Part shown: piece after piece, positions 8,767 to 28,252 of the stretch
Numbering within the stretch: the stretch's first letter is position 1
Layout: each line of letters begins with the position of its first letter
Assembly (NCBI GenBank): GCA_036263915.1
Contig: DATASD010000005.1
Span: 75,059-139,058 of the forward strand
Reading direction: 5' to 3'
Length of the DNA stretch: 64,000 bases
Source of the DNA: Candidatus Saccharimonadales bacterium
GTDB lineage: Bacteria; Patescibacteriota; Saccharimonadia; Saccharimonadales; UBA4665
Notes under the pieces: model-generated
Told to the model about the DNA's origin: nothing
Databases searched by the model: none
What the model saw: the letters and a program-made list of their open reading frames with translations, nothing else
Made by a program: the position numbers and the translations under genes

Positions 8767-8783
8767 GGATTTTCCTTCCATAT

Positions 8784-8810: not shown

Positions 8811-8834
8811 GTTGGTGGTTATGTTCGTATTATT

Positions 8835-8909: not shown

Positions 8910-8953
8910 AGAAACAAGTATGTACTCGTCGCTCGCCATTTGCAAGTTTTTAC

Positions 8954-8982
8954 TTTACACTAGAGATGATTTCCGCTACAAT
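8954..8982 (+). promoter_or_regulatory. sigma70-like promoter upstream of tuf (TTTACA-N17-TACAAT)
   Basis: TTTACA at 8954-8959, a 17-nt spacer, TACAAT at 8977-8982. Confidence 0.5.
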
Positions 8983-9055
8983 ACGTGGGTCACTGGTGTG
9001 AGTATTTATCCTCATGCAGAAAACATTTAGTTATTAATTAAGGAGTCTTTCCCAA

Positions 9056-10240
9056 ATGGCAGACACATTTGACCGAAGCAAGCCGCACGTGAACGTTGGT
9101 ACTATGGGCCACGTTGACCACGGTAAAACGACTTTGACGGCCGCTATTACGGCTGTTCTCGCTAAGCGCCTTCCGAGCGCTGTTAACAAACCAATCGCGT
9201 ACGACCAGATCGACAACGCACCTGAAGAGCGCGCTCGTGGTATTACCATCGCTACCTCGCACCAAGAGTACGAGAGCGAAAAACGTCACTACGCACACGT
9301 TGACATGCCTGGTCACGCCGACTACGTCAAAAACATGATCACCGGTGCCGCCCAGGTTGACGGTGCTATCCTCGTGGTGTCTGCCGCTGATGGTCCTATG
9401 CCTCAGACTCGTGAGCACGTATTGCTTGCTCACCAGGTTGGTGTGCCAAAGATCCTCGTGTTCCTCAACAAGATGGACCTCGCCGACCCAGAACTCGTTG
9501 ACCTCGTCGAAGAAGAGGTTCGCGAACTCCTCGAAAAGAACGGTTTCGACAAGGACTGCCCAATTATCCGCGGTTCTGCAACCAAGGCTCTCGAAGGCGA
9601 CGCTGCCAACGAAGACGCTATCATGGAACTTGTGAAGGCTATGGATGACTACATTCCACAGCCAAAGCGCGAACTCGACAAAGCATTTTTGATGCCTATC
9701 GAAGACGTATTCTCGATCAAGGGTCGTGGTACGGTTGCAACCGGTCGTATCGAGCAGGGTGTTGTGAAGATCAACGACGAAGTTGAAATCGTTGGTGTTC
9801 GCCCAACTCAGAAATCTGTCGTAACTGGTATTGAAGCCTTCAAGAAGCAACTTGACCAAGGTCAAGCAGGTGACAACGCCGGTGTATTGCTTCGCGGTAT
9901 TGAGCGCGACGACATCGAGCGCGGTCAGGTGATTTGTAAGCCAGGCTCGATCACTCCTCACACCGAGTTTGAATCAGAAGTTTACATTCTGAACAAAGAC
10001 GAAGGTGGCCGTCACACGCCATTCTTCAAGGGCTACAAGCCTCAGTTCTACTTCCGCACGACTGACGTCACCGGTGAAGTTGAACTCCCAGCCGACAAAG
10101 AAATGGTAATGCCAGGCGACACCATAACCTTCAAGGTTAAGTTGCTCGCTCCAATTGCCATGGACCAGGGTCTTCGCTTCGCTATCCGCGAAGGTGGCCG
10201 TACGGTCGGCGCCGGTGTTGTAACCAAGATCATCAAATAA
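9056..10240 (+). CDS. tuf: translation elongation factor Tu
   Basis: [25 protein letters not shown] and the rest of a canonical 394-aa EF-Tu. Confidence 0.98.
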
Positions 10241-10284
10241 CAAGCTAGGGAAAATAGCTCGCACATTTCAAAGGAAGAACAGCA

Positions 10285-10614
10285 ATGGTAGCAGAACCAA
10301 AGAAAGAACAGAAACAACGGATCCGTATTCGCCTCAAGGCATACGACCACAAAGTCATCGACCAAGCTGCAAAGCAGATCGTTGACACTGCGCTTCGCAC
10401 GGGCGCTACCATCGCTGGTCCAATCCCACTGCCAACTGACCGCAGCACATTTACGGTTGTAAAAAGCCCACACGTGTACAAAAAGGGTCGTGAGCAGTTT
10501 GAAATGCGCGTTCACAAACGCCTTATCGACGTTACTGATCCAACACCAAAGACAATCGACTCATTGATGAATCTCTCACTGCCAGCCGGCTGTGATGTAG
10601 CCATCAAAATGTAA
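10285..10614 (+). CDS. rpsJ: 30S ribosomal protein S10
   Basis: [24 protein letters not shown]...GPIPLPT...[28 protein letters not shown]. Confidence 0.97.
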
Positions 10615-10636
10615 CAATACTTGTTACGAAAAAAAC

Positions 10637-10667
10637 AAAAACCGCTCCCAAAAAAGAGCGGTTTTTA
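10637..10667 (+). terminator. Rho-independent terminator directly after rpsJ
   Basis: AAAACCGCTC / loop CCAAAAAA / GAGCGGTTTT followed by T. Confidence 0.75.
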
Positions 10668-10685
10668 CATGGTAAGGACATACAC

Positions 10686-11033
10686 ATGGAATACTCAGCT
10701 AAAGACTACATACCCATAACGGACCCCCAACTAGTACATGTACTGGAAGATGCAGGATGCATAGGCGATCCCGTTCAAATGAACGATTCTGTTGATCCAC
10801 GCTACGGCGAAATTACTGAAGGTACTGTTATGGTACCTGCACGTGCTATACATGAGGCCTTTGGCTTATACGATAGTTTGCGAGATGATTACATCAGGGA
10901 AGGTGTGCCATACGACGATACGCCTTCCGATCGCCTATTTAACGCAATGAGCCAACGACAACATGCACTACTCCAGGGCTATGATTTCTTACATGGTTCT
11001 CCATCTACCGAGATACGAGAGCCCGACGCGTAA
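10686..11033 (+). CDS. hypothetical acidic 115-aa protein
   Basis: ORF with an AAGGA RBS about 8 nt upstream. Asp/Glu-rich with no TM segment. First gene of the block inserted between rpsJ and rplC. Confidence 0.5.
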   Translation: MEYSAKDYIPITDPQLVHVLEDAGCIGDPVQMNDSVDPRYGEITEGTVMVPARAIHEAFGLYDSLRDDYIREGVPYDDTPSDRLFNAMSQRQHALLQGYDFLHGSPSTEIREPDA

Positions 11034-11045
11034 ATACATTCGCGC

Positions 11046-11372
11046 ATGCTCGCCGTGTATGCTTTAATAGTGCTCATGGCTTCATCTAAAACAAAAAGCA
11101 AATCCCGTGCTCGAAGCATGAACGCGCAGCAATCATTTGATGGCGTGTATCTCTTAAAGCTCGTCTTGTATTTGCTTGTTGGTTCACTCTGGTTGAAGGT
11201 CACAACCGCAGCTGGCACGCATATTCCATTGCCGATCGGTTTTATTATCGGACTGCTCTTTACGACTCATGAGCATTTTCAGATTGATCGCAAGATAGAG
11301 TATGCGGTATTATTGGTAGCTATGCTTGTAGGTTACTTCGTGCCTACCTACGGCTTGTATATCACCCTGTAA
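11046..11372 (+). CDS. hypothetical small membrane protein (~3 hydrophobic segments)
   Basis: A basic N-terminal stretch (KTKSKSRARS) is followed by the hydrophobic runs VYLLKLVLYLLVGSLWL, IPLPIGFIIGLLF and AVLLVAMLVGYFV. Confidence 0.5.
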   Translation: MLAVYALIVLMASSKTKSKSRARSMNAQQSFDGVYLLKLVLYLLVGSLWLKVTTAAGTHIPLPIGFIIGLLFTTHEHFQIDRKIEYAVLLVAMLVGYFVPTYGLYITL

Positions 11373-11397
11373 CGATTCCGATCAGTGAGGTTTCTGT

Positions 11398-13938
11398 ATG
11401 TCTTTCGAAGTGCCACCTAACCATGAAATGCCCGACCCACCACACCTAATAGAGCAAACGGCATCGCATGGCTCTGACCCAGTCTACGAAATCCATGAGC
11501 CGCCTACCACTGATGCCCCAGATGTGCCTATCGTACTGAGCGAGATGCGTGGTGCTTATCAAGAAGGTGGTAAGCCTGGCGAAATAACTAGTGCAATGAA
11601 AACACCAGAGGAATATCAGCGCGCCATCACTGAGCTTACGACCACATCACCGGAGGTTGCAGAAGCGCAGAGTGCGCGACTCGACGAAGTGGTCGACGAG
11701 GCACTTCGTCACACGGTCGGCGAGCATGAGCGGCAGGTGCTGGAGTATGCACGTGGCATATTCAAGTGGACACTTTTCGGTAAGTCCGAAGAGCAGTTGC
11801 CCGACGGCCTGGTGATTGGATCGCACCGAGGGAGGCCTGCGGTTCGCCTCGATGCGCGAAAGCTTATTACGCTCGACTGTATTATTGATGCAGGGAGCCG
11901 GCTCGAGCAATTTGGATTCGAAGAGGTTGTCGAGGCGGTCGATGCCGACATAGAATCTCGTTCGGACGCTGTTCGCGAAGAGATGCAGGGCGAAAGCAGA
12001 CAAAACCCTGCATATCTTTTCATGCAATCGTTTGATGTTCATGCGCAACCCGAAATAGTCGACGTACCACTCGACGAACGCGAAAAAGCTATTCGCGCTG
12101 GCCAGGTTCGCCAAGAGGTCATTGAGCGACACAATCTTCTCGAGCCGGGTGGGGTCTTTGAGCGGGCCTCAAGCGCAGACACTGAGCTGCGCCGCGGTTT
12201 GTGGCACATCGATGACGAAACAAAGCCGCAAGTAGAATCACGCAGCGACCAAAATCCTACCGAGCGTGCGCGTGCCTATCTCGCTGAACGTGCCATCGAC
12301 TATCATATTGCACGTCGCGACAATATTGAAGATACACCGGAAGTCCGTGAGCGGCTTAAGCAGCTAATGCTCTCCACCGATGCTCCAGCTGACAATGCTG
12401 AAGGCTACGACCGCTTTATTCTCTTTGATGACGCAACCTCATCTACCTATGTACTTTCCGAAGAACTTACAGAGGGGAGCCCTCTCATGGAAGAGGTGTT
12501 GGCGGGTAGTATTTTGAGAAACTATGTCAATACGCTCCTCAGAGATTATGATCCGTCACTGCCTTATGATCAGGCTGTGGAAAAGACTGTCAATCAGGCC
12601 GTTCAAGAAGTATGGGAATTTATGTTTGACGACATCGGTAAGGCAGGCGCCCTCGATAACATAGGCGAGTACGACCCAGCCATTCGCAACTCGCTTATGA
12701 CGCCTCGAGGCGAGCAAGTGCCACAAGGTACTTTGACGGAACACGCGCATCTGCACCACCACGGTACCGGTGATACGGAGTTTATGACCCGTGAGGCGGC
12801 TGAGTCGCTACAGGAGCAATACGTTGGCCACATAGAATCAGGTACTATTCCGGGCATGCGCGTCTTGCAGATTCGCAGCCGCGACGAAACCTTGCCGCAC
12901 ACAAGCGACCGGAGCGATGCAGTGCTGCGACTCCATGGCAGAGAATTTAATGATCACGACCCGTCGATTCCTGGCTTTACACTCGTGGCGCGCAACGATC
13001 TCGAAGGTCGGTATGAATTTACGCGCAATGACACCGACCCATATGCTTCACCGGAAGTGCCTATTTCAACGCAGCAGGCGCAGGAACTTGCGGATACATA
13101 CCGTGCAATTGGTCTCAATCAGCTCGCTTTTCGCATGTCGCAAAATACTGAACTTACCGTTGCCGATTTGGCGGAATATATAACAATATATAGTACTTAT
13201 CCACTGCCACAAGAGACCAGGTACAGCGAACAGTATCCACGAAGCCACAGCACACCAGACCTCGAAAGCTTTCGAGATTTCGTGGATGATGGCCGCCTTG
13301 CTGTACAATGTACTGGCGCAAAAAATTTCATGAAGCTATCGCTACAGCAGCTCTTTGGTGTTGAAAGTGCGAGCAGCATTGCCGGCCGAGCCATTGGTAC
13401 TGGCGACATTACTGAGCTTCAACACGGTCAGACGACCTTTACCCACAATGGTGAGTCATATATTATAGACACCACGCCACCTTCGCGTGCCGGCATGGGA
13501 ACATTACCCAATCCACCGTCGGACGCACCGCTACGACCACCAAGGCCAACCGCTCACGAGCAACTGCAGCGTACGCCACGTCAACAAGAAATCTCTGCGG
13601 AAATACCTCGCGATCCTAGCGCGCAGCTGCATGCCGCTCGGGCCTCGCTCGAAACACAGCTCGGTGCTGCTATGGGAATCCGGGGTCAGCAAGCGCTTTA
13701 CGAGGCGGTGGCAAAGTTACAGCCAAACGTCGATCCCGTCCGACGCACAACAGAGATGGCGATACAGGCGGCAGAAGGTGCCGCAACCCGTGAAGCGGCT
13801 GAATCGCTCGTAACGTATCTACAAAATTATCGCCAACAACCACGAGAGACCCTGAGGGCACAGGGCTATCCGGTGTATGAACCTCGGCTGCTCGACCTAT
13901 TGCACATGACGGCACAACGCATCTACAGGAATGCATAG
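11398..13938 (+). CDS. paralog 1 (most divergent) of the ~850-aa family with a transglutaminase-like C/H/D signature
   Basis: Shares family blocks with the other four copies: FKWTLFGK..QLPDGLVI, VPLDEREKAI, IPGFTLV, DPYASPEVPI, VQCTGAKNFMKLSL...HGQTTFTHNGESYIIDTTP, DPVRRT. GTGAGG RBS before the ATG. Confidence 0.8.
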   Translation: MSFEVPPNHEMPDPPHLIEQTASHGSDPVYEIHEPPTTDAPDVPIVLSEMRGAYQEGGKPGEITSAMKTPEEYQRAITELTTTSPEVAEAQSARLDEVVDEALRHTVGEHERQVLEYARGIFKWTLFGKSEEQLPDGLVIGSHRGRPAVRLDARKLITLDCIIDAGSRLEQFGFEEVVEAVDADIESRSDAVREEMQGESRQNPAYLFMQSFDVHAQPEIVDVPLDEREKAIRAGQVRQEVIERHNLLEPGGVFERASSADTELRRGLWHIDDETKPQVESRSDQNPTERARAYLAERAIDYHIARRDNIEDTPEVRERLKQLMLSTDAPADNAEGYDRFILFDDATSSTYVLSEELTEGSPLMEEVLAGSILRNYVNTLLRDYDPSLPYDQAVEKTVNQAVQEVWEFMFDDIGKAGALDNIGEYDPAIRNSLMTPRGEQVPQGTLTEHAHLHHHGTGDTEFMTREAAESLQEQYVGHIESGTIPGMRVLQIRSRDETLPHTSDRSDAVLRLHGREFNDHDPSIPGFTLVARNDLEGRYEFTRNDTDPYASPEVPISTQQAQELADTYRAIGLNQLAFRMSQNTELTVADLAEYITIYSTYPLPQETRYSEQYPRSHSTPDLESFRDFVDDGRLAVQCTGAKNFMKLSLQQLFGVESASSIAGRAIGTGDITELQHGQTTFTHNGESYIIDTTPPSRAGMGTLPNPPSDAPLRPPRPTAHEQLQRTPRQQEISAEIPRDPSAQLHAARASLETQLGAAMGIRGQQALYEAVAKLQPNVDPVRRTTEMAIQAAEGAATREAAESLVTYLQNYRQQPRETLRAQGYPVYEPRLLDLLHMTAQRIYRNA

Positions 13939-13967
13939 TTGACTTACCTATACTTTAATGATATAGT
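13939..13967 (+). promoter_or_regulatory. strong internal promoter candidate between paralogs 1 and 2 (TTGACT-N17-TATAGT)
   Basis: TTGACT at 13939-13944, a 17-nt spacer, TATAGT at 13962-13967, in the only sizeable (AT-rich) gap inside the array. Confidence 0.5.
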
Positions 13968-13994
13968 AAACATTTGTCTATAGGTGCTCCTGTC

Positions 13995-16538
13995 ATGCCT
14001 CACGCAGAATACTCACGCTCAAACGAAACGAACAATCCATTGCTTTTTCAGTCTGCGCTCGAATTGTATACTACTGCCTCTGATTTTGTAGGAACTCTTC
14101 AGGATTCGTATACAGGGATCATTGAGCCACCATCAACCAACTCCGAACTTATTAAGAGTGCTGACCGAGTAGTTGACGAAGCATTGGCCGAAAACCCCAT
14201 TCAGACCCAAACGCCAGAAATACCAATAGATCCAGAGGCACGTCGTCGCCGAGTCGCCGAACTTACGGCATGTACGCCCGAATTCGAGGCCGAGAAACAA
14301 CTTGAGCTAGACGCAATCATCGACGAGACACGTCTGCATGCGCCAAGCGCGCACGATAGGCGATCGATCGAGTTGGCCGGCAATCTATACCGATGGCAAC
14401 TATTTGGTAAACATAGCGATCCATTGCCCGATGGCTTTGTAATAACCAAACATCCTCACACTGGCGACACCTACATTAGTTGCGACAAGCGACGATCTTT
14501 CACGGCCAGTTGCATAGACACTGCAGATGCTCAGTTCGAGATACGTGGCCTGAATAAACTTATGGGTGCGACACGAGAGCACCTGCGAGAGGTGCATGAC
14601 ACTTCAGACGAACTACATGCAATAATAAACGATAACCCCGCTAATGCATTTCTCCGTAGTTTTGACGTGCCTTCCCAGCCAAAGACTACAGAAGTCCCCC
14701 TCGATCAACGACAGCGGGCAATCGAAGAAGAGAAGCTTCGCCAGGCCGTACTCCAACGACATGGACTTGATGCAACGCAAGCCGCAAACATCCAGCGCGG
14801 CGACCCTGTCGATATGGAGCTTCGGCGGGCATTTTGGCGCCTAGACGACCAAACCCAGCAACAGCGGGAGCCACAAAAGCAAGACGGCCTTATGCGGTTG
14901 CGTGATTATTTCGTCGACTGCATAGCTGATGAGTATATCCGAGTTAGAAGCAACAATATGCCAGAATACGACAAGGGGACGATAAAGGCGGTTTTCGACG
15001 ATAGCCTAGCTAGAAGAGATGAATACAGAGAAATTGCATCGTGGACTCACGGTTCCGACAGGAAAATCATCAAAGAGCTCGGTGGCGACAAAGCCCGCGA
15101 CCAATTACAATACGAGCTCATTCAAAAAACAATAGGTATAGCCATAACTTCGCTTATCCACTCCGAGACACCTCCAGAAAACTTTGCTGACTTTATAGAA
15201 AGTGTGGAGCGAGAGACAACGGCTGTGATATCTAACACTCTACGTTACAATATTGGCGCCATAAAATACGATGTAACAACAGGCCACAGCCCGAACCTAC
15301 GCGATGCCATCGTTGCGCCAAGTGGGGAATTTGTGCCATATGAGGAACTTCAGGAGTATCATCACGCGCATCCAATAGGTGAAACGGCATACGTAAACGA
15401 GAGCATGATAGATCGCCAGGAGGCGCGAACGCTTGGCGAAGTGCAATGGGGACAAGTGCCTAATCAGCGTGTTATTCAGATTCAAGAACGCGACACTTCA
15501 TTACCAAAGATAAGCCTCGAAACCGAGCTTGAACTGAAGTTGTATGATCGCGAGTTTGATACCGCTGATCCTGTAATACCAGGCTATACGCTCGTAAGTC
15601 ACGATGATCTATATTTTGGGTTCAAACGTGATGCTACCGATCCGTATGCGCCGGTTAATGTGCCTCTTCCTGAGGATAAACGGTTATCTTTGGCTAAAGA
15701 ATTCCGCGATATTGGTCTCGAGACCCTTGCTACTCGCGTAGAAAGTCAGCCGCTCACCGTTGAAGAGCTACGTGCGAATATTCAGCAAAGTAGTTATTAC
15801 CCGAAGCCAGAGTGGGACGATGTCGGCGCGACAAAAAAATATCCGCATAGTATAGCGAACGACAAGTTGGAACGGTTTGAGCGAGTTGTTATTAACAACG
15901 AACTCCATGTGCAATGTACGGGAGCGGCTAATTTCCTGAGGCTATCGCTTGATCATATATTTGGCCCTGGCAGCGCCAATATTACCAGCGGCGTAGCTAT
16001 AGATAGCAAGACCTATATCACCGCTGCTCGACACCGACAGACAACATTTGTGCACAACGGGCTATCGTACATCTTGGACGCGACGTCTGGCGCGGCATCG
16101 CTGCCATCAAACACACGCGAGGCGCCCGAAGCTCGCACCACTCAGGATGCACCGCCTGCCGCACCGAAAGGGCCTATCGTCTCTTATCAAGACGTCGCAC
16201 ATTCACAGCAGGAAAACCTACAGATGGCTCGACGCTCTCTTGAATCTCAGCTGAGTAACGCCTTGCAAACGCCTGATGCGCAAGCTCTTTATAGCCACGT
16301 TGCTGCACTGCCGGAGGCAACCGACCCAGTGCGCCGCACGCTTGGTCTCGCCATGCGTGCTACTAACGGAGGCACAATATCAAAAGCCGAAGCAATCGCT
16401 CTGGTAGAATTTTTAGATGTCTACAAGAAGCGCGCACCTGAAGAATTGCGCAGTTTCGGCTTACCGGAATACAGCCCACAGATGCTTGACATGCTTGTCA
16501 CAAGCGCGCGAACCATCGCCTGTAACATTGCCGCATAA
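13995..16538 (+). CDS. paralog 2 of the ~850-aa transglutaminase-like family
   Basis: The ATG at 13995 (MPHAEY...) aligns with the MPSREF/MPSRQF starts of copies 3-5 and has an AGGTG RBS 8 nt upstream. The track start at 13974 is a TTG. Contains VQCTGAANFLRLSL...HRQTTFVHNGLSYILDATSG. Confidence 0.85.
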   Translation: MPHAEYSRSNETNNPLLFQSALELYTTASDFVGTLQDSYTGIIEPPSTNSELIKSADRVVDEALAENPIQTQTPEIPIDPEARRRRVAELTACTPEFEAEKQLELDAIIDETRLHAPSAHDRRSIELAGNLYRWQLFGKHSDPLPDGFVITKHPHTGDTYISCDKRRSFTASCIDTADAQFEIRGLNKLMGATREHLREVHDTSDELHAIINDNPANAFLRSFDVPSQPKTTEVPLDQRQRAIEEEKLRQAVLQRHGLDATQAANIQRGDPVDMELRRAFWRLDDQTQQQREPQKQDGLMRLRDYFVDCIADEYIRVRSNNMPEYDKGTIKAVFDDSLARRDEYREIASWTHGSDRKIIKELGGDKARDQLQYELIQKTIGIAITSLIHSETPPENFADFIESVERETTAVISNTLRYNIGAIKYDVTTGHSPNLRDAIVAPSGEFVPYEELQEYHHAHPIGETAYVNESMIDRQEARTLGEVQWGQVPNQRVIQIQERDTSLPKISLETELELKLYDREFDTADPVIPGYTLVSHDDLYFGFKRDATDPYAPVNVPLPEDKRLSLAKEFRDIGLETLATRVESQPLTVEELRANIQQSSYYPKPEWDDVGATKKYPHSIANDKLERFERVVINNELHVQCTGAANFLRLSLDHIFGPGSANITSGVAIDSKTYITAARHRQTTFVHNGLSYILDATSGAASLPSNTREAPEARTTQDAPPAAPKGPIVSYQDVAHSQQENLQMARRSLESQLSNALQTPDAQALYSHVAALPEATDPVRRTLGLAMRATNGGTISKAEAIALVEFLDVYKKRAPEELRSFGLPEYSPQMLDMLVTSARTIACNIAA

Positions 16539-16549
16539 TGTACAGAACT

Positions 16550-19111
16550 ATGCCAAGTCGTGAATTTCACCAACCACAAGAGCCACGAGGAATACCGCTA
16601 TCATCCTTGGAAGCTTTGGGAGACATTCCCACTTCCGACATCGATTTTAGTACGACAGAGTCGTCATATCTAATAACTCCGCCCACTTCGCTTCCAGATC
16701 ATAAAGAGAGCACCTCGTTGATGGAGATACCAGAAGTACAGTCTGAAGTGCCTACAACGTTAGAGACCCGAACGCGCCGTTTTATGGAGATTGTTAGCTG
16801 CTCATCAGAGGTCGAGGCAGAGCAACGACCCAAATTTGATGCAGCCGTCGAACGTGCGCTGTCCGCCGCTCCTAGTACACACGACAAGCAATCTATCCAG
16901 CGAACGGCCGATATTTTACGCTGGCAAATGTTCGGCAAGCCTGATGATCAGCTGCCAGAAGGACTGGTTATCACCGAAGTAATGGGCAAGACAAAACCGA
17001 GTCTCGATGCTCGAAAGCCATTTACCATTGAATGTGCAGTCGAAAGCTATGTCGCCCTCGCCCAGACCGGAGTCCAGGGCGTCGAAAACGCGGTTATTGC
17101 CGATATTCGCCAACGTCTGCACGGCGCCGAGCCAGAAGTCCGATCACTATGTAACAATAATCCGGCTAATGCTCTGCTGCGCAGCTTTGATGTACAAGGC
17201 CAGCCGCTCACCAAAGAAGTACCGCTTGATCAGCGGCAACGGGCTATCGAAGAGGAAAAGGCGCGACGGACGACCATGCAGCAATTCGGTATGGGTGATG
17301 ACGTTCGTGTCGAAGATATCCCACGCGGCGGCCCCGTTGATAATGCGCTGCGCCGTGCCTATTGGCGCCTAGACGATCAGACTCAACAGAAACGGGAGCC
17401 GCAGTCCGAACAGGGTGCACACGACAGAGCGCGACAGTACTTTGCGGGCCGAATTGCAGATGCTTACATAACCGCCAAAAAACAGATGGGAGGCAAAGAC
17501 ACCCCTGACCGGCAATATATAATCGATTTTCTGAATAATACCAAGGTAGATTACGATATTGACACACGATTGCAACGCCAATATATTCTTGCCTACAAAA
17601 CAGAGGTTGTTGCGGATGAGTTGCAAACGTTATCCGTCGACACAAGTGATCCGCTTGGCTATGATTGTACCCGTTTTACCCTCCAACAGGGGATAGCCGA
17701 ATTGTTCAGCGCAGACTGCCCCGCATCGTATACCGAATTCATGGATGATATAGAGTATGAGTTGTATCAGGCCATTGAGTATTCAGCCACTTCAGTGATC
17801 GGGACATTCGGTGACTATACTCCCCTGAGCACCGGCACAGAACTTCGGGATAGGCTACTCGCTCCCTGCGGTGAATTCGTGGACGCAGAAACGCTCAAGG
17901 AAGCACGGTCGCACCACGGCCATCCGAATGAAGCGTGTGGCTATATGACGCAAGAGGAGATGCAGCAAGCCAGCATGGAGTCAATCGGCTCGGTCCAATC
18001 AGGCAGCGTTCCGAGTCCTCGCATCATTCAAATGCAGGAAAAGAACCCAGCGTTACCGCGACCCAGTGGCCAGAGCGATCTAAAACTATTTTTGTATGAT
18101 GAACGATTCACCTATGCCGATCCTGACATACCTGGCTATACGCTTGTACGTCACAACGGCGATGCGTACGAATTTATGCACGATGCTGCCGATCCATATG
18201 TGGCAGCCAATGTGCCCATCAGCGCCGACGCCCAGCAGATACTCACTCACGAATACGAACAGCTGGGCCTGCAAACGCTTGCCGATCGCATCAAAAGTCA
18301 GTCGACGTTAACTGTTGAGGAACTACGCGGCTTTATTCAAGCAGAAAGTAATTACCCAGTGCCGACCAACGATGAAATTTTAGGCAGGAGCAGCAGGTAC
18401 AGTCGGGCGCCTTACTCAGATCTGCAACACTTCGGAAGAGTTGTTGCTGGTGGTAAACTCCAGATACAATGCACCGGAGCAGCAAGCTTCCTCAAGCTAT
18501 CACTACAAAAAGCGTTTGGCAACCCTAGCGCAAGTACGGTAAACGGACTCACCATAGAACCCTCGAGCACTACCCTAAATAATCTCGGCCACCAGCAGAC
18601 CGCCTTTCAACATGATGGCAAGATGTATATTTTGGATGCAACACCGGGCGGAGCAACCACGCCGCTGGTAGGGCAGGCGCCAGACATAAAGCGTACAGAT
18701 GTGCAGCAAGTGCCAATTCGTCCGGCCGATATGCAGACACTCAATAGCCCTGCAAAAACTGCGGATGAGCAGTTGCAGGCGATTCGTACTAACTTTGAAA
18801 AACAGCTGGGCATTGCACTCAAAGCACCGCACACGGAAGCTCTCTATGAACATATCGCCAAGCTGCCCGAAGCCACCGATCCTGTTCGGCGAACGCTTGG
18901 GCTAGCGATGCGTGCCACTAGCGGAGACACCGTGTCATTTGCCGAAGCAACCTCACATCTGGACTTCTTAGACGCATACAAGGATCGCAGCCCGCAAGAA
19001 CTCCGCCAGCTCGGTTTACCAGTTTACGACAGGAAGATGTTGGATATGCTCAGTAAAAGCACAGAAGCCATCGCCGGTATTTTCAATATATCTATCACTA
19101 TACCTGAGTAG
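16550..19111 (+). CDS. paralog 3 of the ~850-aa transglutaminase-like family
   Basis: The conserved start MPSREF is at 16550. An upstream in-frame ATG at 16538 overlaps the copy-2 stop. Candidate triad: Cys codon 18470-18472, His codon 18590-18592, Asp codon 18635-18637. Confidence 0.85.
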   Translation: MPSREFHQPQEPRGIPLSSLEALGDIPTSDIDFSTTESSYLITPPTSLPDHKESTSLMEIPEVQSEVPTTLETRTRRFMEIVSCSSEVEAEQRPKFDAAVERALSAAPSTHDKQSIQRTADILRWQMFGKPDDQLPEGLVITEVMGKTKPSLDARKPFTIECAVESYVALAQTGVQGVENAVIADIRQRLHGAEPEVRSLCNNNPANALLRSFDVQGQPLTKEVPLDQRQRAIEEEKARRTTMQQFGMGDDVRVEDIPRGGPVDNALRRAYWRLDDQTQQKREPQSEQGAHDRARQYFAGRIADAYITAKKQMGGKDTPDRQYIIDFLNNTKVDYDIDTRLQRQYILAYKTEVVADELQTLSVDTSDPLGYDCTRFTLQQGIAELFSADCPASYTEFMDDIEYELYQAIEYSATSVIGTFGDYTPLSTGTELRDRLLAPCGEFVDAETLKEARSHHGHPNEACGYMTQEEMQQASMESIGSVQSGSVPSPRIIQMQEKNPALPRPSGQSDLKLFLYDERFTYADPDIPGYTLVRHNGDAYEFMHDAADPYVAANVPISADAQQILTHEYEQLGLQTLADRIKSQSTLTVEELRGFIQAESNYPVPTNDEILGRSSRYSRAPYSDLQHFGRVVAGGKLQIQCTGAASFLKLSLQKAFGNPSASTVNGLTIEPSSTTLNNLGHQQTAFQHDGKMYILDATPGGATTPLVGQAPDIKRTDVQQVPIRPADMQTLNSPAKTADEQLQAIRTNFEKQLGIALKAPHTEALYEHIAKLPEATDPVRRTLGLAMRATSGDTVSFAEATSHLDFLDAYKDRSPQELRQLGLPVYDRKMLDMLSKSTEAIAGIFNISITIPE

Positions 19112-19115
19112 TCCT

Positions 19116-21695
19116 ATGCCAAGTCGTCAATTTTACCAACCACAAGAACGAGGACTGGAGTCGCTCATCAATCCAGTTGTCACCCTTTTTGACTTTGAAG
19201 CCGAGACCATCATTGAGCCTATACCGGAATGGGCAACCGATACCGACGAGGTAACGGTGCCGTGCTTGACGATTCCTACCTCAGTTCCAGATCATAGCGA
19301 AAGCACCCCGCCAAAGGCAGTGATAGAGGTGCAACCTGCCGTGCCTGGGACTCCCGAGGCCCGATCCCGCCGTTTCATGGAAATTGCCAGCTGTTCGCCG
19401 GAAGTAGCAGCAGAACAACGCTCGAAACTAGACGCTGCTGTTGCGAGCGCTTGCGCTACCGCACCAAGCATGCACGACAAGCAATCCATACAACGAGTAG
19501 CCAATATCTTACGCTGGAAATTGTTTGGTAACGTTGGTGACACCTTGCCAGAAGGACTGGTTATTACAGAAGTAAAGGGCGATCCGAGCCTCAGTCTCGA
19601 CACCCGAAAATCATTTACGGCCGAATGTGCAGGCAAAGCCTATCACTCGATTATGTTAGCTGGTGGTATCAGTGCCGAAAACGCAGTTCTTTGGGACATT
19701 GATAAGCGTATGAGCGACTCCGCTACAGAAGTACGGGCGCTTATCAGCGCTACACCAGCGAATGCGTTACTCCGCAGCTTTGATGCACAAGGCCAGCCAC
19801 AAACAAACGAGGTGCCCCTCGACCAAAGACAGCGGGCAATCGAAGAAGAGAAAGTACGCCGTCAAACGTTACAACAGTTCGGCATGGGCGATGACGTTCG
19901 TGTCGAAGATATCCCACGCGGCAGCGCTGTCGACAATGCGCTGCGTCGCGCCTATTGGCGCATTGATAACCAAACGCAGCAAAGGCAAGAACCACAAACA
20001 GAGCAAAGTGCGTTCGACAAAGCTCGCCTGTATTTTGCAGAACGACTTGCCGATGCTTACATCAAAGTACAAAAACAGAAAAATCAAGTGGACGTCCCAA
20101 GTAGACAAGAAGTCATTACTCTTCTGTGCGACACAAAGTTGGGGTCCATGGACAGAGAAGCACGACGCTTGCATACGCGGCTATTAGACTACAAATCATA
20201 CGTCATATATGACGAACTCCAAGAACTATCGCTCGACCCCGATAAGGATCCTTTTGGCTACGCATGTGCTCGCGAGACCTTAAAAGCGGCAACGGACCAG
20301 CTGTTTGTCGGTCTTGACCTAAGCACCTATACTAAATCTCTCGCCTCGATAGAGAGCCAGGCATATAGCAGGGTCGCCTCCGGCATAATGGCTGAGGTGG
20401 GAGACTTTAGAAGGTACCGCCCCGCGGACTGGCTGGTGCAACTCCGCGATCAAATGTTAGATCCACAAGGCGAATATGTCGACCTCGCTACGCTCGAGGA
20501 GGCAGGGAAACATCATCAACACCTTAATGAAGCACCGATGTACGTCAGCCAAGAAGCATTACAAAATGATCTGGCACAGTCTGCTGGCTCTGTGCAGTCA
20601 GGCGGCGTTGCAAGTGCGCGTATTATACAAACCCGAGAAAAGGATACAGGGCTGCCAGCACCCACCGGCCAAGGTGACCTGCAATTGACGCTGCACGACA
20701 AGCAATTTACATATGCCGATCCCGCCATACCCGGTTATACGCTCGTGGGCCGCAGTGGCAATGCGTATGAATTTACCCGTGATGCTACCGACCCGTACGT
20801 GGCAGCCTACATACCAATCAGTGACAACGCTCGACAGACGTTGGCACAAGAGTACAAGAACATCGGCCTCCGCAAGCTCGCAGCGCAGGTTACCAACGGT
20901 CCCACATTCACCGTGGAACAGTTGCGTAGTGCCATTCAAGCCCAGAGCCACTATCCGTTGCCGACCGAAGCTGAACTTGCAAGTGGCACCGGTATGTATA
21001 GCAATAAAATATATTGTATAGGGCTGTCGGACTTTGAGAGTTTTGTAGCCAATGGCAAACTTCATGTGCAATGCACCGGGGCCTCACAATTTCTGAAGTC
21101 CTCACTGCAAACAGCGTTTGACTACCGGAATGTAGGTGTAGCGAACGGGCTTTCGATAGACCCATCTACTACCAACATCAGTGCAGCTGGCCATCAACAA
21201 ACAACGTTTTATCATAATGGAAAGATGTATATTCTGGATGCGACGCCAGGCGTAGCGACCACGCCTCGTAGCGGAGAGGCACCAAATGTACCGAATAACC
21301 TCGTGCAGCAAGTACCAGCACAAGTAGCGAGTATGCGCTCGCTGAATAAACCTCCGAGAACCACCACCGAAGAGCTGCGAGCTATCCGCAGTAATTTTGA
21401 AAGACATCTGCGTATTGCACTCAAAGCGCCGGACACCCAGACGCTTTACGAACGAGTCGCCAAGCTGCCCGAAACCACCGATCCTGTGCGCCGCACGCTG
21501 AGCGTGACCATGCGCGCCAGCAGCGGAGGGGCGGTAACAAAGGCTGAGGCGGATGCTCTCGTGGACTTTCTGGATAGATACAAACAGTTTAGTGCGGCAG
21601 ACCTTCGAAGCTCCGGCCTACCAGTATATGAACGTCAGCTTCTTGACTTGCTGAGCGCAAGCGCGCAAGCTATTGCTCATACAACTTCAGCCTAA
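19116..21695 (+). CDS. paralog 4 of the ~850-aa transglutaminase-like family
   Basis: MPSRQFYQPQE start. Contains VQCTGASQFLKSSL...GHQQTTFYHNGKMYILDATPG and KLPETTDPVRRTL. Confidence 0.85.
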   Translation: MPSRQFYQPQERGLESLINPVVTLFDFEAETIIEPIPEWATDTDEVTVPCLTIPTSVPDHSESTPPKAVIEVQPAVPGTPEARSRRFMEIASCSPEVAAEQRSKLDAAVASACATAPSMHDKQSIQRVANILRWKLFGNVGDTLPEGLVITEVKGDPSLSLDTRKSFTAECAGKAYHSIMLAGGISAENAVLWDIDKRMSDSATEVRALISATPANALLRSFDAQGQPQTNEVPLDQRQRAIEEEKVRRQTLQQFGMGDDVRVEDIPRGSAVDNALRRAYWRIDNQTQQRQEPQTEQSAFDKARLYFAERLADAYIKVQKQKNQVDVPSRQEVITLLCDTKLGSMDREARRLHTRLLDYKSYVIYDELQELSLDPDKDPFGYACARETLKAATDQLFVGLDLSTYTKSLASIESQAYSRVASGIMAEVGDFRRYRPADWLVQLRDQMLDPQGEYVDLATLEEAGKHHQHLNEAPMYVSQEALQNDLAQSAGSVQSGGVASARIIQTREKDTGLPAPTGQGDLQLTLHDKQFTYADPAIPGYTLVGRSGNAYEFTRDATDPYVAAYIPISDNARQTLAQEYKNIGLRKLAAQVTNGPTFTVEQLRSAIQAQSHYPLPTEAELASGTGMYSNKIYCIGLSDFESFVANGKLHVQCTGASQFLKSSLQTAFDYRNVGVANGLSIDPSTTNISAAGHQQTTFYHNGKMYILDATPGVATTPRSGEAPNVPNNLVQQVPAQVASMRSLNKPPRTTTEELRAIRSNFERHLRIALKAPDTQTLYERVAKLPETTDPVRRTLSVTMRASSGGAVTKAEADALVDFLDRYKQFSAADLRSSGLPVYERQLLDLLSASAQAIAHTTSA

Positions 21696-21706
21696 CCAGG
21701 ATTTAT

Positions 21707-24274
21707 ATGCCCAGCCGCGAGTTTTTCCAATCACCAGAACAACCACCGGAAATCTTCTCATTGCCGGTAGATGTTCATATAGATGCAGAGTCTACTGCTA
21801 TCACTGAGCCTGTATCCGCCCCGACGGACACGGGCAATATGTCTTATTACGGGCCGCTAGTAGGTGCGGAAATTGATGACCCGCTGCCAGAAGCACCCAG
21901 TACTCAAGAGAACCCGCCGCCAACAGAGACGCCAGAGCAGACTGAGGTGCCCGAAATACCTCCAACTGCCGAGGCCAGGCAGCAGCGTTTTACAGAAATC
22001 ATGAGTTGCTCACCAGAGTTCGCTGCCAAGCATCTTCCTGAATTTGATAAGGTGGTCGAAACAACGATGCAGACTGCTCCCGGGCCACACGAAAAGCAGT
22101 CTATCCAACGAGTAGCCGGTATTCTCCGCTGGTACTATTTTGGCAAGCCTGGTGATCAACTGCCAGAAGGCTTGGTCATCACAGAGCATGACGACATGCG
22201 GCAGCCAACTTTTGATGCCCGGAAACTTTTTACCGAAAGGTGCGCCGAGGAGGCGTACAGACAACTCGGCAACGACATGCGATCAATACTAAGCGCAGTG
22301 ACACGGCACGTTGCGGTGCGCGGTGAAGAAGCGCGTTCCGAAGTGCACGCCATAGTCAACGACAATCCCGGCAATGCCTTACTTCGTAGTTTTGATGCAC
22401 ACGACCAGCCGAACACCGCAGAGACGCCACTCAGCCAGCAAGAACGTGCAATCGAAGAAGGAAAAGTACGGCGTGCCATTATGACGAGATTCGGCATGAA
22501 CGACACAACGCCAGAAGGGGAAATCACCCGCGGTGGGGCAGTCGATAGCGCGCTGCGGCGTGCTTATTGGCGTATCGATGACGAAACGAGCCAGCACCCG
22601 GAACCTCAAAAACAGGATGCTTTTGCCAAGGCAAAGAGCTACTTTGCCGAGCGCCTTGTAATGGCACGCAACGAATTTCGACAAGGCATAGACCTACCCC
22701 CACTTGACCCCAAGCGCGCATATGACATTTTAGTCAACTATGACGCTACCTCGCTCAAGGGTTACGATGAGGATTTACGTCGAGAACTTCTGGGTTCTAT
22801 ATTGGAGGTCGCGACATCAGAATGCGACATACTTACTGATCCGAACAGGACGCTCGAGCGCGAAAGCACTCTTGTGACACTCGACGAGGGCCTACGAAAA
22901 ATTTTTAGCTCTGACCGCCCTGATTCATACGATGCGCTCTTGGGTTCAGTCGAAGACCACGCTACGGGTGTACTATTATATCAATCACGGCCTACGCCTG
23001 AACTATATGCGTACACTATAAGCTACGCGCGCCCACGCCACCAACTACTTGCACCCGAAGGAGAGTATGTACCCGTGGAAACACTCGCAGAAGCAACAAA
23101 TAGCCATGAGCATATTAGCACATGCGCCCAATACCATGGCTCTGCGGAAATAGAGAAATCCAGACAAGCATACGTGGGGGCCGTACATCGCGGCAGCGTG
23201 CCGGATCAGCGGATTATACGAACCAAAGAAGTCGATCCGACTCTTCCTGAAAATACACCAGGTGATCTTACCCTTCTTTTAACAGATGAGCAGTTTACAT
23301 ACGCCGATCCGTACATACCAGGATATACACTTGTGAGCCGCGAGACCGATGCCTATACTTTTACGCGCGATTCGGAGGATCCGTACGTGGCCGCGAACGT
23401 GCCAATTGAAGATTGGGCGAAACGAAGCTTAGCCGCAGAGTACCAACGGATCGGCCTCAGTGACCTTGCAGCGAAACTTACGCAGGCCTCTTCGCTCACC
23501 GTGGAACAACTGCGGTCGTACGTCGAATCAGAAAGTGATTATTACATACCGGACCGCACCGGAGTGGATGCGAACGGCAATCGTATCGAGGTAGACGATA
23601 CGAGGCTTTCCGGTTTTAAGGGCGTTGTTCGGAATGGCAAGCTCCTAGCGCAATGCAGCGGTGCTGCCAGTTTCTTGAAGTTGTCGCTCGAAAGAGCGTT
23701 CGGCGAAGGAAATGCACATGTAGTAAATGGGTTGTCCATTAACCGTTCGACACGAGTCATTGACAAAGCAGGACACCAACAGACCTCGTTTATTCATGAT
23801 GGGCGCATGTACATCCTTGATGCGACCCCTGGCGGCAGCACTTTTCCCCAGCAGGGCCAAGCGCCACGAGTACAAGAGCACTTAGCACGTCAGGTACCAC
23901 AGGAAACTGGTGAATTACAAATGCAACCACTCGTAGAACCGGCGAAGCCAAAAGAAGAGCAGCTACGTGCCACAAGGGTAAATTTTGAGCAACAACTCAG
24001 TGTGGCCCTTGGCGCTCCCGACCAGCAGGCGCTTTACGAACGAGTCGCCAAGCTGCCCGAAGCCACCGATCCCGTGCGCCGCACCATGACGCTTGCTATG
24101 CAAGCTACCACTGGTAGTGCACGTAAAGCAGATGCCGAAACACTGCATACGTTTCTCAAGAATTATAGTGAGAAGGGCGCGGCCGAGCTCAAAACGATGG
24201 GCCTTCCTGCGTACGACAGTGGCATGCTGACCATGCTCGCAGGCACGGTACAGCGCATCGCCGAAAACCTTTAA
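21707..24274 (+). CDS. paralog 5 of the ~850-aa transglutaminase-like family
   Basis: MPSREFFQSPE start. Contains AQCSGAASFLKLSL...GHQQTSFIHDGRMYILDATPG and KLPEATDPVRRTM. Confidence 0.85.
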   Translation: MPSREFFQSPEQPPEIFSLPVDVHIDAESTAITEPVSAPTDTGNMSYYGPLVGAEIDDPLPEAPSTQENPPPTETPEQTEVPEIPPTAEARQQRFTEIMSCSPEFAAKHLPEFDKVVETTMQTAPGPHEKQSIQRVAGILRWYYFGKPGDQLPEGLVITEHDDMRQPTFDARKLFTERCAEEAYRQLGNDMRSILSAVTRHVAVRGEEARSEVHAIVNDNPGNALLRSFDAHDQPNTAETPLSQQERAIEEGKVRRAIMTRFGMNDTTPEGEITRGGAVDSALRRAYWRIDDETSQHPEPQKQDAFAKAKSYFAERLVMARNEFRQGIDLPPLDPKRAYDILVNYDATSLKGYDEDLRRELLGSILEVATSECDILTDPNRTLERESTLVTLDEGLRKIFSSDRPDSYDALLGSVEDHATGVLLYQSRPTPELYAYTISYARPRHQLLAPEGEYVPVETLAEATNSHEHISTCAQYHGSAEIEKSRQAYVGAVHRGSVPDQRIIRTKEVDPTLPENTPGDLTLLLTDEQFTYADPYIPGYTLVSRETDAYTFTRDSEDPYVAANVPIEDWAKRSLAAEYQRIGLSDLAAKLTQASSLTVEQLRSYVESESDYYIPDRTGVDANGNRIEVDDTRLSGFKGVVRNGKLLAQCSGAASFLKLSLERAFGEGNAHVVNGLSINRSTRVIDKAGHQQTSFIHDGRMYILDATPGGSTFPQQGQAPRVQEHLARQVPQETGELQMQPLVEPAKPKEEQLRATRVNFEQQLSVALGAPDQQALYERVAKLPEATDPVRRTMTLAMQATTGSARKADAETLHTFLKNYSEKGAAELKTMGLPAYDSGMLTMLAGTVQRIAENL

Positions 24275-24296
24275 GTAATGTAGAATTGTCTACATA

Positions 24297-24326
24297 TTGA
24301 CAAGGGGTGGCGAAAGCTGCTACACT
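24297..24326 (+). promoter_or_regulatory. sigma70-like promoter for the rplC-led operon (TTGACA-N18-TACACT)
   Basis: TTGACA at 24297-24302, an 18-nt spacer, TACACT at 24321-24326, about 160 nt upstream of rplC. Confidence 0.55.
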
Positions 24327-24393
24327 GTAACGGTATAACAAATTCCTGTACTTGGTGATTTGAGTAGGTCTTGTCTGTAACAGATAGGAAACC

Positions 24394-24413
24394 GCTCGGA
24401 GCCGAGCATTTTT
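24394..24413 (+). promoter_or_regulatory. short hairpin plus T-run in the rplC leader (possible attenuator)
   Basis: GCTCG-GAGC-CGAGC (5-bp stem) followed by ATTTTT, between the predicted promoter and rplC. Confidence 0.3.
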
Positions 24414-24486
24414 GTGTCATAGGCATAAAATTTCGAGGCGGCGGGATAAGTACATGCAGGCGACCAAGCGCCAGCACGGAGACACT

Positions 24487-25104
24487 ATGAAAGCATTAAT
24501 CACTCGAAAGGTCGGCATGACGAGTACCATCGCAGAAGACGGTACCGTGCAAGCTGTTACCTTGCTTTCCGCTAGTCCCTGCGTTATCACGCAGGTCAAA
24601 ACCGACGAAACCGACGGCTACAAAGCTGTGCAGGTGGGTTTTGAGGAAGCGAAACAACAAAACGTTGCAAAGGCCCAACAAGGTCACTTTAAGGACGCCG
24701 GTAAGCTCCCGAAGATTATTCGTGAGTTCCGCGTAGACGAAGTTACTGAAGACCTCAAGGTTGGCGAAACGATTAACCCAGAGGTCTTTTCAATTGGCGA
24801 CGAAATCGACGCAACCGGCACCTCGAAGGGTAAAGGTTGGGCTGGTACCATCAAACGCCACAACTTCCACCGCGGTCGTAAAACGCACGGTGGTCGCAGC
24901 TACCGCCGCCCAGGTTCGATCGGTTCGATGTATCCCCAACACATTTTTAAAGGTAAAAAGATGGCCGGTCAGATGGGTCACGAGCAAGTAACCGTCAAAA
25001 ACTTGAAGGTTGCTTTGATCGACACTGACCTCGGCGTCATCGGCGTAACTGGTGCGGTCCCTGGCCCGCGCAAGGGTATTGTCATCATTAAGGAGGCCAA
25101 ATAA
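24487..25104 (+). CDS. rplC: 50S ribosomal protein L3
   Basis: MKALITRKVGMTSTI...GKGWAGTIKRHNFHRG..THG. The ATG at 24487 has a GGAG RBS. The track ORF start at 24412 is an upstream extension. Confidence 0.96.
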   Translation: MKALITRKVGMTSTIAEDGTVQAVTLLSASPCVITQVKTDETDGYKAVQVGFEEAKQQNVAKAQQGHFKDAGKLPKIIREFRVDEVTEDLKVGETINPEVFSIGDEIDATGTSKGKGWAGTIKRHNFHRGRKTHGGRSYRRPGSIGSMYPQHIFKGKKMAGQMGHEQVTVKNLKVALIDTDLGVIGVTGAVPGPRKGIVIIKEAK

Positions 25105-25742
25105 TGGCTGTCGCAACTTATACGAAGAGCGGCACAAAAGCTACGGCTGCTGCAAAGCTCGACAAGTCCGTCTTTGGCGTGATGCCCGAGAACCACGACT
25201 TGCTCAAACACGCTTACGTTGCCTACCTGGCAAACGGCCGCGAAAACCTGGCTGTTACCAAAACCCGTGGCTTGGTTCGCGGTGGTGGTAAAAAACCATG
25301 GAAGCAAAAGGGTACCGGTCGCGCACGCTTCGGTTCAACCCGTAACCCAATTTGGCGCGGTGGTGGTATCGCCTTTGGTCCAACCGGTCTCGAAAACTAC
25401 AGTCACAAGCTGCATCTAACTGCCAAGCGCCTGGCTATTCGCCAAGCCTTGAGCATGGCTGCCGATGAAGGTCGCATCAAAGTCATTGAAAACTTCGAGA
25501 ATAAGGACGGCAAAGTTGCAAAGACAACTGCATTCCTAAAGAAGATCGAGGCGACCGGCTCAGTACTGCTTGTACTTGAGCACAAAGACGACATGACTAA
25601 TCGTGCTATCGGCAACTTGCCAAAAGTCAAAGCTGTTCAGGCAACGTATTTGAACGTGTACGACGTTATGAACGCCGACACCATCGTCATGACTCAAAAA
25701 GCGCTGGACATGGTCCACGAATGGCTCGGAGGTACAAAATAA
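25104..25742 (+). CDS. rplD: 50S ribosomal protein L4
   Basis: TKTRGLVRGGGKKPWKQKGTGRARFGSTRNPIWRGGG. Confidence 0.96.
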   Translation: MAVATYTKSGTKATAAAKLDKSVFGVMPENHDLLKHAYVAYLANGRENLAVTKTRGLVRGGGKKPWKQKGTGRARFGSTRNPIWRGGGIAFGPTGLENYSHKLHLTAKRLAIRQALSMAADEGRIKVIENFENKDGKVAKTTAFLKKIEATGSVLLVLEHKDDMTNRAIGNLPKVKAVQATYLNVYDVMNADTIVMTQKALDMVHEWLGGTK

Positions 25743-26937: not shown

Positions 26938-26951
26938 GGTAGGTAGGATAT

Positions 26952-27227: not shown

Positions 27228-27235
27228 GTAAAGCT

Positions 27236-28251: not shown

Positions 28252-28252
28252 C

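Follow-up and report, generated by a model that had tools for sequence, protein, structure and literature searches.

Five tandem paralogs with a predicted NAT-like catalytic core between rpsJ and rplC of a Saccharimonadales bacterium

Introduction

Why do five consecutive genes for proteins of about 850 amino acids, none with an assigned function, lie between the ribosomal protein genes rpsJ and rplC of a Saccharimonadales bacterium? The locus is part of a 64,000-nt stretch of DNA, referred to here as the window, from a soil-derived Candidatus Saccharimonadales bacterium (GenBank assembly GCA_036263915.1, contig DATASD010000005.1, positions 75,059 to 139,058). A preliminary description, made from the sequence of the window, regarded the five genes (p1 to p5) as an unrecognized family that splits the S10 operon. 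In Escherichia coli this operon runs rpsJ-rplC-rplD and onward, with an L4-controlled leader upstream of rpsJ. Patescibacteria account for a large share of bacterial diversity, and for most of the proteins that they encode no function has been assigned.

Our best explanation, to which we assign a probability of roughly 0.6, is that the array is a lineage-specific expansion of soluble thiol enzymes of the acyl-transfer or hydrolase type, with a catalytic core resembling that of arylamine N-acetyltransferases (NATs), lodged in a slot that existed before it. The family is unannotated, and its overall architecture has no match in the structure libraries searched; the superfamily of the catalytic core is known. 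Five "hypothetical proteins" can thereby be placed in a family that is now defined, comprises at least 270 clusters, and has a confident structural model, a pinpointed triad, and a testable thioester chemistry.

Conservation of a Cys-His-Asp triad in the family

The proteins p1 to p5 align end to end, with pairwise identities of 31 to 57%. An exhaustive HMMER search with a profile of the five paralogs covered 1.84 billion representatives, grouped into clusters at 50% identity. A cutoff of E ≤ 1e-3 was passed by 270 clusters, and one of E ≤ 1e-30 was passed by 155. Most of these proteins are 780 to 860 amino acids long and match the profile over their full length. In a family alignment of 148 sequences (residues are numbered as in p3, counted from the open reading frame [ORF] start at 16538), every sequence has Cys645 and His685, 145 have Asp700, and two more have Glu in its place; the neighboring Gln644 and Gln687 are each kept in 143. 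All five copies in the window retain the Cys-His-Asp triad.

We modeled p3 with AlphaFold from a 92-sequence alignment. The model reached a predicted local distance difference test score (pLDDT) of 89.2 and a predicted TM-score of 0.84, and only residues 1 to 59 were disordered. An earlier model built from five sequences had reached a pLDDT of 66, and a Foldseek search with it was uninformative. In the better model, Cys645 opens a helix (residues 645 to 660), His685 lies in a strand (684 to 692), and Asp700 ends the next one (695 to 699). As predicted, and with the juxtaposition of the three residues in space inferred from secondary structure, this setting is the layout of papain- and transglutaminase-like thiol enzymes. 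The same placement, with Cys at the N terminus of a helix and His and Asp on adjacent strands, is found in the Peptidase_CA thiol enzymes (PF01841, DUF553 [PF04473], Ntaq1, and PNGase).

Likeness of the catalytic region to NATs

Among known enzymes, the NATs (PF00797; human NAT2 [2PFR], the Salmonella [1E2T] and Pseudomonas aeruginosa [1W4T] enzymes, and the related amide synthases such as GdmF) share with the family the order and, almost exactly, the spacing of the three residues. From Cys to His and from His to Asp there are 40 and 15 residues in the family, compared with 39 and 15 in NAT2, whose sequence was checked against PDB entry 2PFR. The two groups also share a succession of an N-terminal helical bundle, the Cys at the N terminus of a helix, and strands that carry the His and the Asp, as well as the motif H-x6-G-x2-Y-I-[LV]-D-A. 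When the family profile was aligned with NAT2 by hhalign, C645, H685, and D700 fell in register with C68, H107, and D122 (P = 0.0019). For the slice of the family that corresponds to p3 residues 540 to 760, set against an alignment of five NATs from PDB entries, the score was 32.4 (P = 3e-4) and the 111 aligned columns covered NAT residues 3 to 123, whereas 60 column shuffles of the same comparison scored 12.8 ± 2.3 (maximum, 21.9) and the reversed alignment scored 13.2. A NAT hidden Markov model (HMM) gave a positive score to 29 family members, versus 2 or 3 reversed or shuffled controls, and its best match fell on the catalytic region in 69 of 96 members. Single members gave weak Pfam matches to PF00797 and to the transglutaminase-like PF04473, of the same superfamily, and the P. 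aeruginosa NAT was among the top 10 Foldseek matches of the model; both lend weak further support.

A number of results weigh against the explanation preferred here. The hhalign probability against NATs ranged from 4 to 39% depending on the slice (39% for residues 540 to 760), so that the similarity is remote, and three of the five single NAT sequences scored at noise level. The best single member matched PF00797 at an E value of 0.02 (1 of 64 members), below threshold, and no Pfam model reached threshold with p1 to p5. Beyond Asp700 the model continues as coil and a helical domain, and NAT domains II and III are absent. A Foldseek search of the PDB and BFVD with the model of pLDDT 89 gave no match at E ≤ 1e-3; the P. 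aeruginosa NAT (1w4t) appeared at rank 10, with an E value of 5.5 and a TM-score of 0.29. In the loci examined, no conserved neighboring gene hints at a substrate, and no clear Shine-Dalgarno sequence was found for p2 to p5.

The family also departs from NATs in its motifs and its size. The RGG-x-C and PFEN motifs of NATs are replaced by QC(T/S)GA and S-x-Y-x2-P; the proteins are three times the size of NATs and have additional domains (helical at the N terminus, beta, and helical at the C terminus); and the three-domain fold of about 280 amino acids that defines NATs (helical bundle, beta-barrel domain II, and alpha/beta lid domain III) is not seen. We conclude from these comparisons that the region and the NAT catalytic core are remotely related and that the protein does not belong to the NAT family, because the profile threshold was not reached, domains II and III are missing, and three further domains are present.

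Relatives of the transglutaminase type were considered as well. The LDATP motif of the family resembles the LDPTP of transglutaminases. However, the core of human TG2 gave an hhalign score of 13.3, equal to noise, with no alignment beyond LDPTP, and animal transglutaminases were rejected as the closest relatives. No transglutaminase-like Pfam model was matched at threshold. The transglutaminase-like model PF04473 was hit by one family member at an E value of 0.073, under threshold, and a viral Ntaq1-like protein appeared in the BFVD search at an E value of 8.7.

Sequence-profile searches of the PDB returned designed helical repeats and noise only. Since neither the PDB nor BFVD yielded a significant structural match, the overall architecture, as modeled, is new relative to those libraries. 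Signal-peptide-like N termini were found in none of 157 members and a transmembrane-like segment was found in one. The members are predicted from their sequences to be soluble, multidomain proteins of about 800 amino acids.

Family members in other genomes

Neither Pfam nor NCBIfam matched the five paralogs, whether as whole proteins or as the catalytic subregion, and the PADLOC and PHROGs profiles returned only noise for them (E ≥ 0.011). None of the four collections thus links the family to a well-annotated architecture of known function. A literature search for the family, the array, or an rpsJ/rplC split in Saccharibacteria found nothing specific. The view that the family was unrecognized holds insofar as no curated family covers it and needs amending in that 270 clusters extend beyond this genome and the triad is recognizably NAT-like. 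When 22 family proteins were looked up by name, 9 were named, 8 of them "hypothetical protein"; 7 of these 8 are NCBI records labeled Saccharimonadales or "Patescibacteria group." The ninth, P0010, is called "elongation factor P hydroxylase" in IMG, a name that we rejected for want of a supporting Pfam match.

Members from other genomes are 19 to 31% identical to p3; RplC, by contrast, is 69 to 92% identical. Judged by sequence divergence, the family evolves fast. A word-indexed homolog search recovered the window's own paralogs only, and scans with the family alignment found no locus from genome contigs and two loci from metagenome contigs.

We examined nine other genomic contexts. Eight hold a single copy (L003 to L006, L089, and L091 to L093), in many cases with neighbors on the opposite strand, and no partner gene recurs among them. 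The ninth, L090 (ENA ERZ27264405, a 1.04-Mb contig), holds a tandem pair at 7515 to 12427 encoding 829 and 808 amino acids with a 4-nt overlap; tandem duplication of the family, as read from these sequences, is not unique to the window. No ribosomal genes lie near the family genes in any of the nine loci, and on this ground the idea that the family is tied to ribosomal genes was rejected.

Single members show further features. The closest relative outside the window, P0006, lies beside AlkZ-like, epoxide-hydrolase, and AraC-type regulator genes (L003; GCA_964644765.1, CAZXXG010000031.1). These neighbors are odd for a reduced Saccharibacteria genome, and the contig may be misbinned or come from a lineage with a larger genome. 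P0138, a protein of 1,587 amino acids from a Logan contig, contains a repeated beta-plus-catalytic module with four matched stretches and degenerate catalytic motifs. In L087 (4925 to 7433) a frameshift or a sequencing error has broken the family gene into two ORFs that overlap.

The rpsJ-rplC gap in Saccharibacteria

We compared the rplC neighborhoods of 80 Saccharibacteria species representatives, whose RplC proteins are 69 to 92% identical to that of the window. In all 70 loci that hold both rpsJ and rplC the two genes are separated, by 497 to 9,251 bp (median, 1,766 bp). The preliminary description had taken the two genes to be normally adjacent and the block to split the operon; within Saccharibacteria this does not hold. 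The spacer between tuf and rpsJ in the same loci measures 45 to 1,746 bp.

The gap commonly contains a homolog of the small gene s2, which precedes p1 in the window. With tblastn, 50 of the 70 gaps were found to hold such a homolog, without exception on the same strand, and ORF clustering placed 45 members together. These proteins are about 95 to 105 amino acids long, carry the motif FDGVYL-K-LYLLVGS-W...IP-PIG...HEHFQIDRKIEYA-LLVAM, in which HEHFQIDRKIEYA-LLVAM forms the conserved C terminus, match no Pfam or NCBIfam family, and are, from their sequence, probably embedded in the membrane. The other small gene, s1, likewise had no Pfam or NCBIfam match. Among the 93 loci fetched, it has no homolog except in L002, a contig identical to the window, and as no homolog stands beside any other family member, s1 was rejected as a conserved partner or immunity gene. 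It is weakly similar (tblastn E value of 0.002) to part of another ORF of the window, at 58223 to 60070.

What else the gap contains varies among species and includes, by names assigned by eye, NUDIX hydrolases, an IPP-isomerase-like gene, an ilvA/ilvB/ilvN/RidA-like cassette, glycosyltransferases, Maf, and many orphans. Three or four genes of the four-gene cassette, again named by eye, occur in four of the loci (L014, L015, L025, and L035). On this comparative evidence the rpsJ-rplC and tuf-rpsJ spacers are a hot spot for accessory genes within the ribosomal gene cluster. In relatives, 157 to 1,936 nt separate the end of s2 from rplC, versus about 13.1 kb in the window. No family member was detected by tblastn or the family HMM in any of the 70 gaps, and the closest species representatives (RplC 91 to 92% identical) do not have the array in the gap.

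The region immediately upstream of rplC is conserved. Its 180 nt are 70 to 85% identical at the nucleotide level in at least 37 other loci (L001, a contig of a second strain, excluded), and the ATTGACA of the promoter is invariant in 27 species. The promoter TTGACA-N18-TACACT noted in the preliminary description was recovered at the position given in Table 1. The promoter and the leader of about 125 nt contain the conserved blocks GTACTTGGTGATTTGGGAAGGTC, TAACAGA, GAAACC, and CGGAGCCGAGCATTTTT, and several blocks in the leader are invariant or nearly so. RNAalifold predicts in the leader a long-range helix, between 24351 to 24356 and 24401 to 24406, followed by U5; the changes that support the helix are mostly one-sided (UG/UA), and few are compensatory. 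No Rfam family matched the leader, which we regard, from its sequence conservation and predicted folding, as a candidate undescribed attenuator of ribosomal protein (S10 operon) genes.

The conservation of promoter and leader across loci indicates that rplC has its own ancestral promoter and leader and that no otherwise intact operon is broken by the block, which splits the S10 operon in a formal sense at most. On the same comparative grounds, the array fills a preexisting accessory slot between s2 and the rplC promoter, and since this promoter and its leader appear autonomous, control of the S10 operon would be undisturbed by the array. From rplC onward the order of ribosomal genes is that of the canonical S10 operon, and a terminator-like helix in a leader precedes the operon in both arrangements. 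In Saccharibacteria, however, rpsJ is detached, the promoter and leader stand before rplC, and a membrane-protein gene and cargo lie between. Because the gap is a lineage-wide cargo slot, the position of the array is less remarkable than first thought; its copy number is unusual. The reorganization bears on the use of ribosomal-gene synteny in the phylum, and the leader points to a probable new autoregulatory element for ribosomal proteins.

Comparison of the five copies and of strains

In a neighbor-joining tree with 62 other family members, p1 to p5 are monophyletic. From this single clade, as far as the sequences tell, the array arose by tandem expansion within its own lineage and has reached five copies. 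The extent of divergence differs along the proteins: identity between paralogs is 24% in segment 301 to 470 and 35% in segment 161 to 222, compared with 44 to 50% in the other folded domains. As segment 301 to 470 is the most variable structured part, the copies are probably isoenzymes with different substrates or targets, and the difference would be set by this helical segment.

The array was recovered in two further assemblies. A JGI contig from sample 3300036831 (L002) is 100% identical to the window over 9116 to 21772, and one from sample 3300036803 (L001) is 99.8% identical, with 29 mismatches, over 16702 to 31695; jointly they span all five genes and both junctions. A protein identical to p4 (P0002) is present in two JGI samples and in an NCBI metagenome-assembled genome (Candidatus Saccharimonadales bacterium), which encodes the proteins of the array on a contig of 162.7 kb. 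That the array or its position could be an artefact of assembly or binning, as the preliminary description had considered, is hardly credible. The contigs of both JGI samples do stop inside the array, as can happen at repeats, but the agreement across all junctions speaks against an artefact, and the DNA identity among the copies, at most about 75% in the best stretches and without long identical repeats, is too low to mislead an assembler. Recent gene conversion or duplication among the copies was rejected on the same evidence.

Given its 99.8% identity, L001 is taken to represent a distinct strain. Of its 29 differences from the window, 20 fall in p5 and none in p3 or p4. The p5 differences comprise 7 nonsynonymous and 13 synonymous changes. 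Their mostly synonymous nature, together with the retention of the triad in every copy, suggests that all five copies are probably functional. Seventeen of the 29 differences cluster in 840 bp of p5 (22219 to 23059, codons 171 to 451), as would be expected if this stretch had recombined or if variation is locally high in it.

Proposed activity and alternative explanations

The data show the anatomy of the locus, a conserved family, the gene order around it, and how the triad aligns; the chemistry, the substrate, and the site of action are inferred. Cys645 would be activated by His685 and Asp700 and would form a thioester acyl-enzyme. The acyl group could then be passed to an amine, in the N-acyltransferase or transamidase chemistry known from NATs, amide synthases, and transglutaminases, or to water, which would make the proteins proteases, deamidases, or thioesterases. 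The lack of a signal peptide in the 157 members screened suggests that the proteins stay in the cytoplasm or else leave it by a route that needs no such signal.

These two locations lead to different views of what the enzymes do. They may work in the cytoplasm as housekeeping or stress enzymes whose substrates are small molecules or proteins of the cell itself, for instance in amine detoxification or protein processing, with the copies providing dosage or substrate breadth and the ribosomal neighborhood being incidental or favoring high expression. We consider this possible, if well short of probable. It agrees with the absence of export signals, with the NAT-like core, with the purifying character of the strain substitutions in p5, and with the settings found elsewhere, where the genes are mostly monocistronic among ordinary metabolic and housekeeping genes (of the pentose phosphate pathway in L089 and of the cell wall in L091). 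Yet members from different genomes are very dissimilar for a housekeeping enzyme, the family looks patchy rather than universal across its 270 clusters, and the proteins, with about 800 amino acids and three domains beyond the NAT core, are far larger than NATs.

Alternatively, the proteins may be host-interaction effectors exported without a Sec signal, for example by type IV secretion, each copy modifying a different host target through acylation, transamidation, deamidation, or cleavage. This proposal is tentative; it is compatible with the enzyme class preferred here and differs only in the site of action. Saccharimonadia possess a type IV secretion system that is essential for epibiotic growth and whose substrates are not known, and diverged tandem arrays have precedents there (PMC12102498, PMC10633639). 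If exported, the family would supply candidate substrates for this essential machinery. Fast divergence between genomes (19 to 31%, against 69 to 92% for RplC), lineage-specific expansions to five copies in the window and two in L090, and variation concentrated in the putative recognition segment 301 to 470 and, between strains, in p5 would all suit effectors, as would the disordered N-terminal extension of the window copies with its shared MPSREF start. However, no signal peptide or membrane anchor was found in a screen of 157 members for N-terminal export signals and transmembrane segments; secretion-system genes adjoin none of the 10 loci examined; the neighbors in other genomes are ordinary; and the strain substitutions in p5 look purifying. 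The pattern is, moreover, shared by many cytoplasmic proteins of Patescibacteria that evolve fast. We rate the cytoplasmic and the effector roles as about equally likely. The more elaborate version, in which the array is a diversified arsenal of an unrecognized effector class of large NAT- or transglutaminase-like acyltransferases or deamidases, exported into the host bacterium without a Sec signal (for example through the type IV system) and directed to its targets by the variable helical segment, seems to us rather unlikely. The VirB2 pilin arrays of Saccharimonadia (PMC12102498) resemble the array in being same-strand tandem paralogs of low identity (about 25 to 54%, versus 31 to 57% here) in reduced epibiont genomes, whereas they encode small secreted pilins tied to type IV clusters, and the array encodes predicted enzymes of 850 amino acids without a secretion link.

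Finally, the array could be a recent foreign island or the cargo of a mobile element inside the S10 operon. The gap is a hot spot whose cargo differs by species, and the array is missing from the gap of the closest representatives. The GC content, though, is the same as that of the flanks; the borders have no integrase, transposase, tRNA, or direct repeats, the only transposase of the window lying 30 kb away; neither PHROGs nor the structural searches gave a viral match; and the paralogs are monophyletic and deeply diverged, which points to amplification in situ long ago. We therefore hold a recent foreign origin to be very improbable, in agreement with the earlier impression of five intact paralogs without a recent foreign look: the array is old, diverged, and native in composition.

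Layout of the locus

The features of the locus are listed in Table 1. The two small ORFs and five intact same-strand paralogs between rpsJ and rplC were confirmed from the ORFs and their translations, and all collinear motifs previously listed for the paralogs were seen in the five-copy alignment. The GC content of the block is 0.49 to 0.525, equal to that of the flanks, as had been judged by eye, and rplD and the remaining S10/spc genes follow rplC.

Lengths of 846, 854, 857, 859, and 855 amino acids had been given for p1 to p5. They are correct as ORFs, but p2 and p3 are likely shorter. The genes p3, p4, and p5 have a common 5' end at the level of both DNA and protein (CTATGCCAAGTCGT/MPSREF), and p2 begins with MPHAEY; these shared ends make the starts at 13995 and 16550 the likely true ones. 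With the revised starts the paralog genes are 4 to 56 nt apart. This spacing, together with the lack of clear Shine-Dalgarno sequences in p2 to p5, suggests that p1 to p5 are cotranscribed and translationally coupled. Promoter-like sites were detected by scanning at 11284 to 11313 and 13939 to 13967.

The hairpin that had been described as a clean terminator after rpsJ (10637 to 10667) is indeed there. The scan, however, scores it on the minus strand, and on the plus strand GAGCGG precedes TTTTTAC, so that it looks like a bidirectional terminator.

Table 1. Coordinates of the locus in the window and of the regions of the p3 model
Feature	Position	Strand	Basis and remarks
tuf	9056-10240	+	ORF list, translation
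rpsJ (S10), upstream border	10285-10614	+	Translation; Pfam Ribosomal_S10 on identical gene in L002
GC-rich, terminator-like hairpin flanked by A-run and T-run	10635-10668		Terminator scan: 15 pairs, minus-strand score
s1, acidic orphan ORF, 115 aa	10686-11033	+	Shine-Dalgarno-like TAAGGA; putative gene
s2, small hydrophobic protein, 108 aa	11046-11372	+	tblastn, ORF clustering
p1, 846 aa, most divergent copy	11398-13938	+	Family HMM E 9e-217; Cys, His, and Asp present
p2, 847 aa from ATG 13995 (ORF opens at TTG 13974, 854 aa)	13995-16538	+	NCBI and JGI gene calls also 847 aa
p3, 853 aa from ATG 16550 (ORF opens at 16538, 857 aa)	16550-19111	+	Modeled copy
p3 triad segment	18470-18646	+	Cys645 18470-18472, His685 18590-18592, Asp700 18635-18637
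p4, 859 aa	19116-21695	+	ORF list, alignment
p5, 855 aa	21707-24274	+	ORF list, alignment; 20 of 29 strain differences
rplC promoter, TTGACA-N18-TACACT	24297-24326	+	Promoter scan; cross-species conservation
rplC leader RNA, attenuator-like	24327-24453	+	Cross-species alignment, RNAalifold
rplC (L3), downstream border	24454-25104; start 24454 or, more likely, 24487	+	Pfam Ribosomal_L3
p3 model: disordered N terminus	Residues 1-59		
p3 model: large helical domain with small hairpins	Residues ~75-470		
p3 model: small beta domain	Residues ~480-560		
p3 model: domain of helices followed by strands	Residues 563-703		NAT-like catalytic core ~569-703
p3 model: C-terminal helical domain, preceded by proline-rich linker	Residues 742-853		

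Other features of the window

An IS1595-family transposase gene (DDE_Tnp_IS1595 plus a zinc ribbon) lies at 54688 to 55557, in the only clearly low-GC stretch of the window (54 to 56 kb; GC content, 0.43), and a second tRNA-Tyr(GTA) gene is found near it, at 53850 to 53938. Five more large ORFs, of 521 to 655 amino acids and without a Pfam family, lie at 56 to 1672, 1687 to 3654, 51958 to 53562 (minus strand), 58223 to 60070, and 60859 to 62424.

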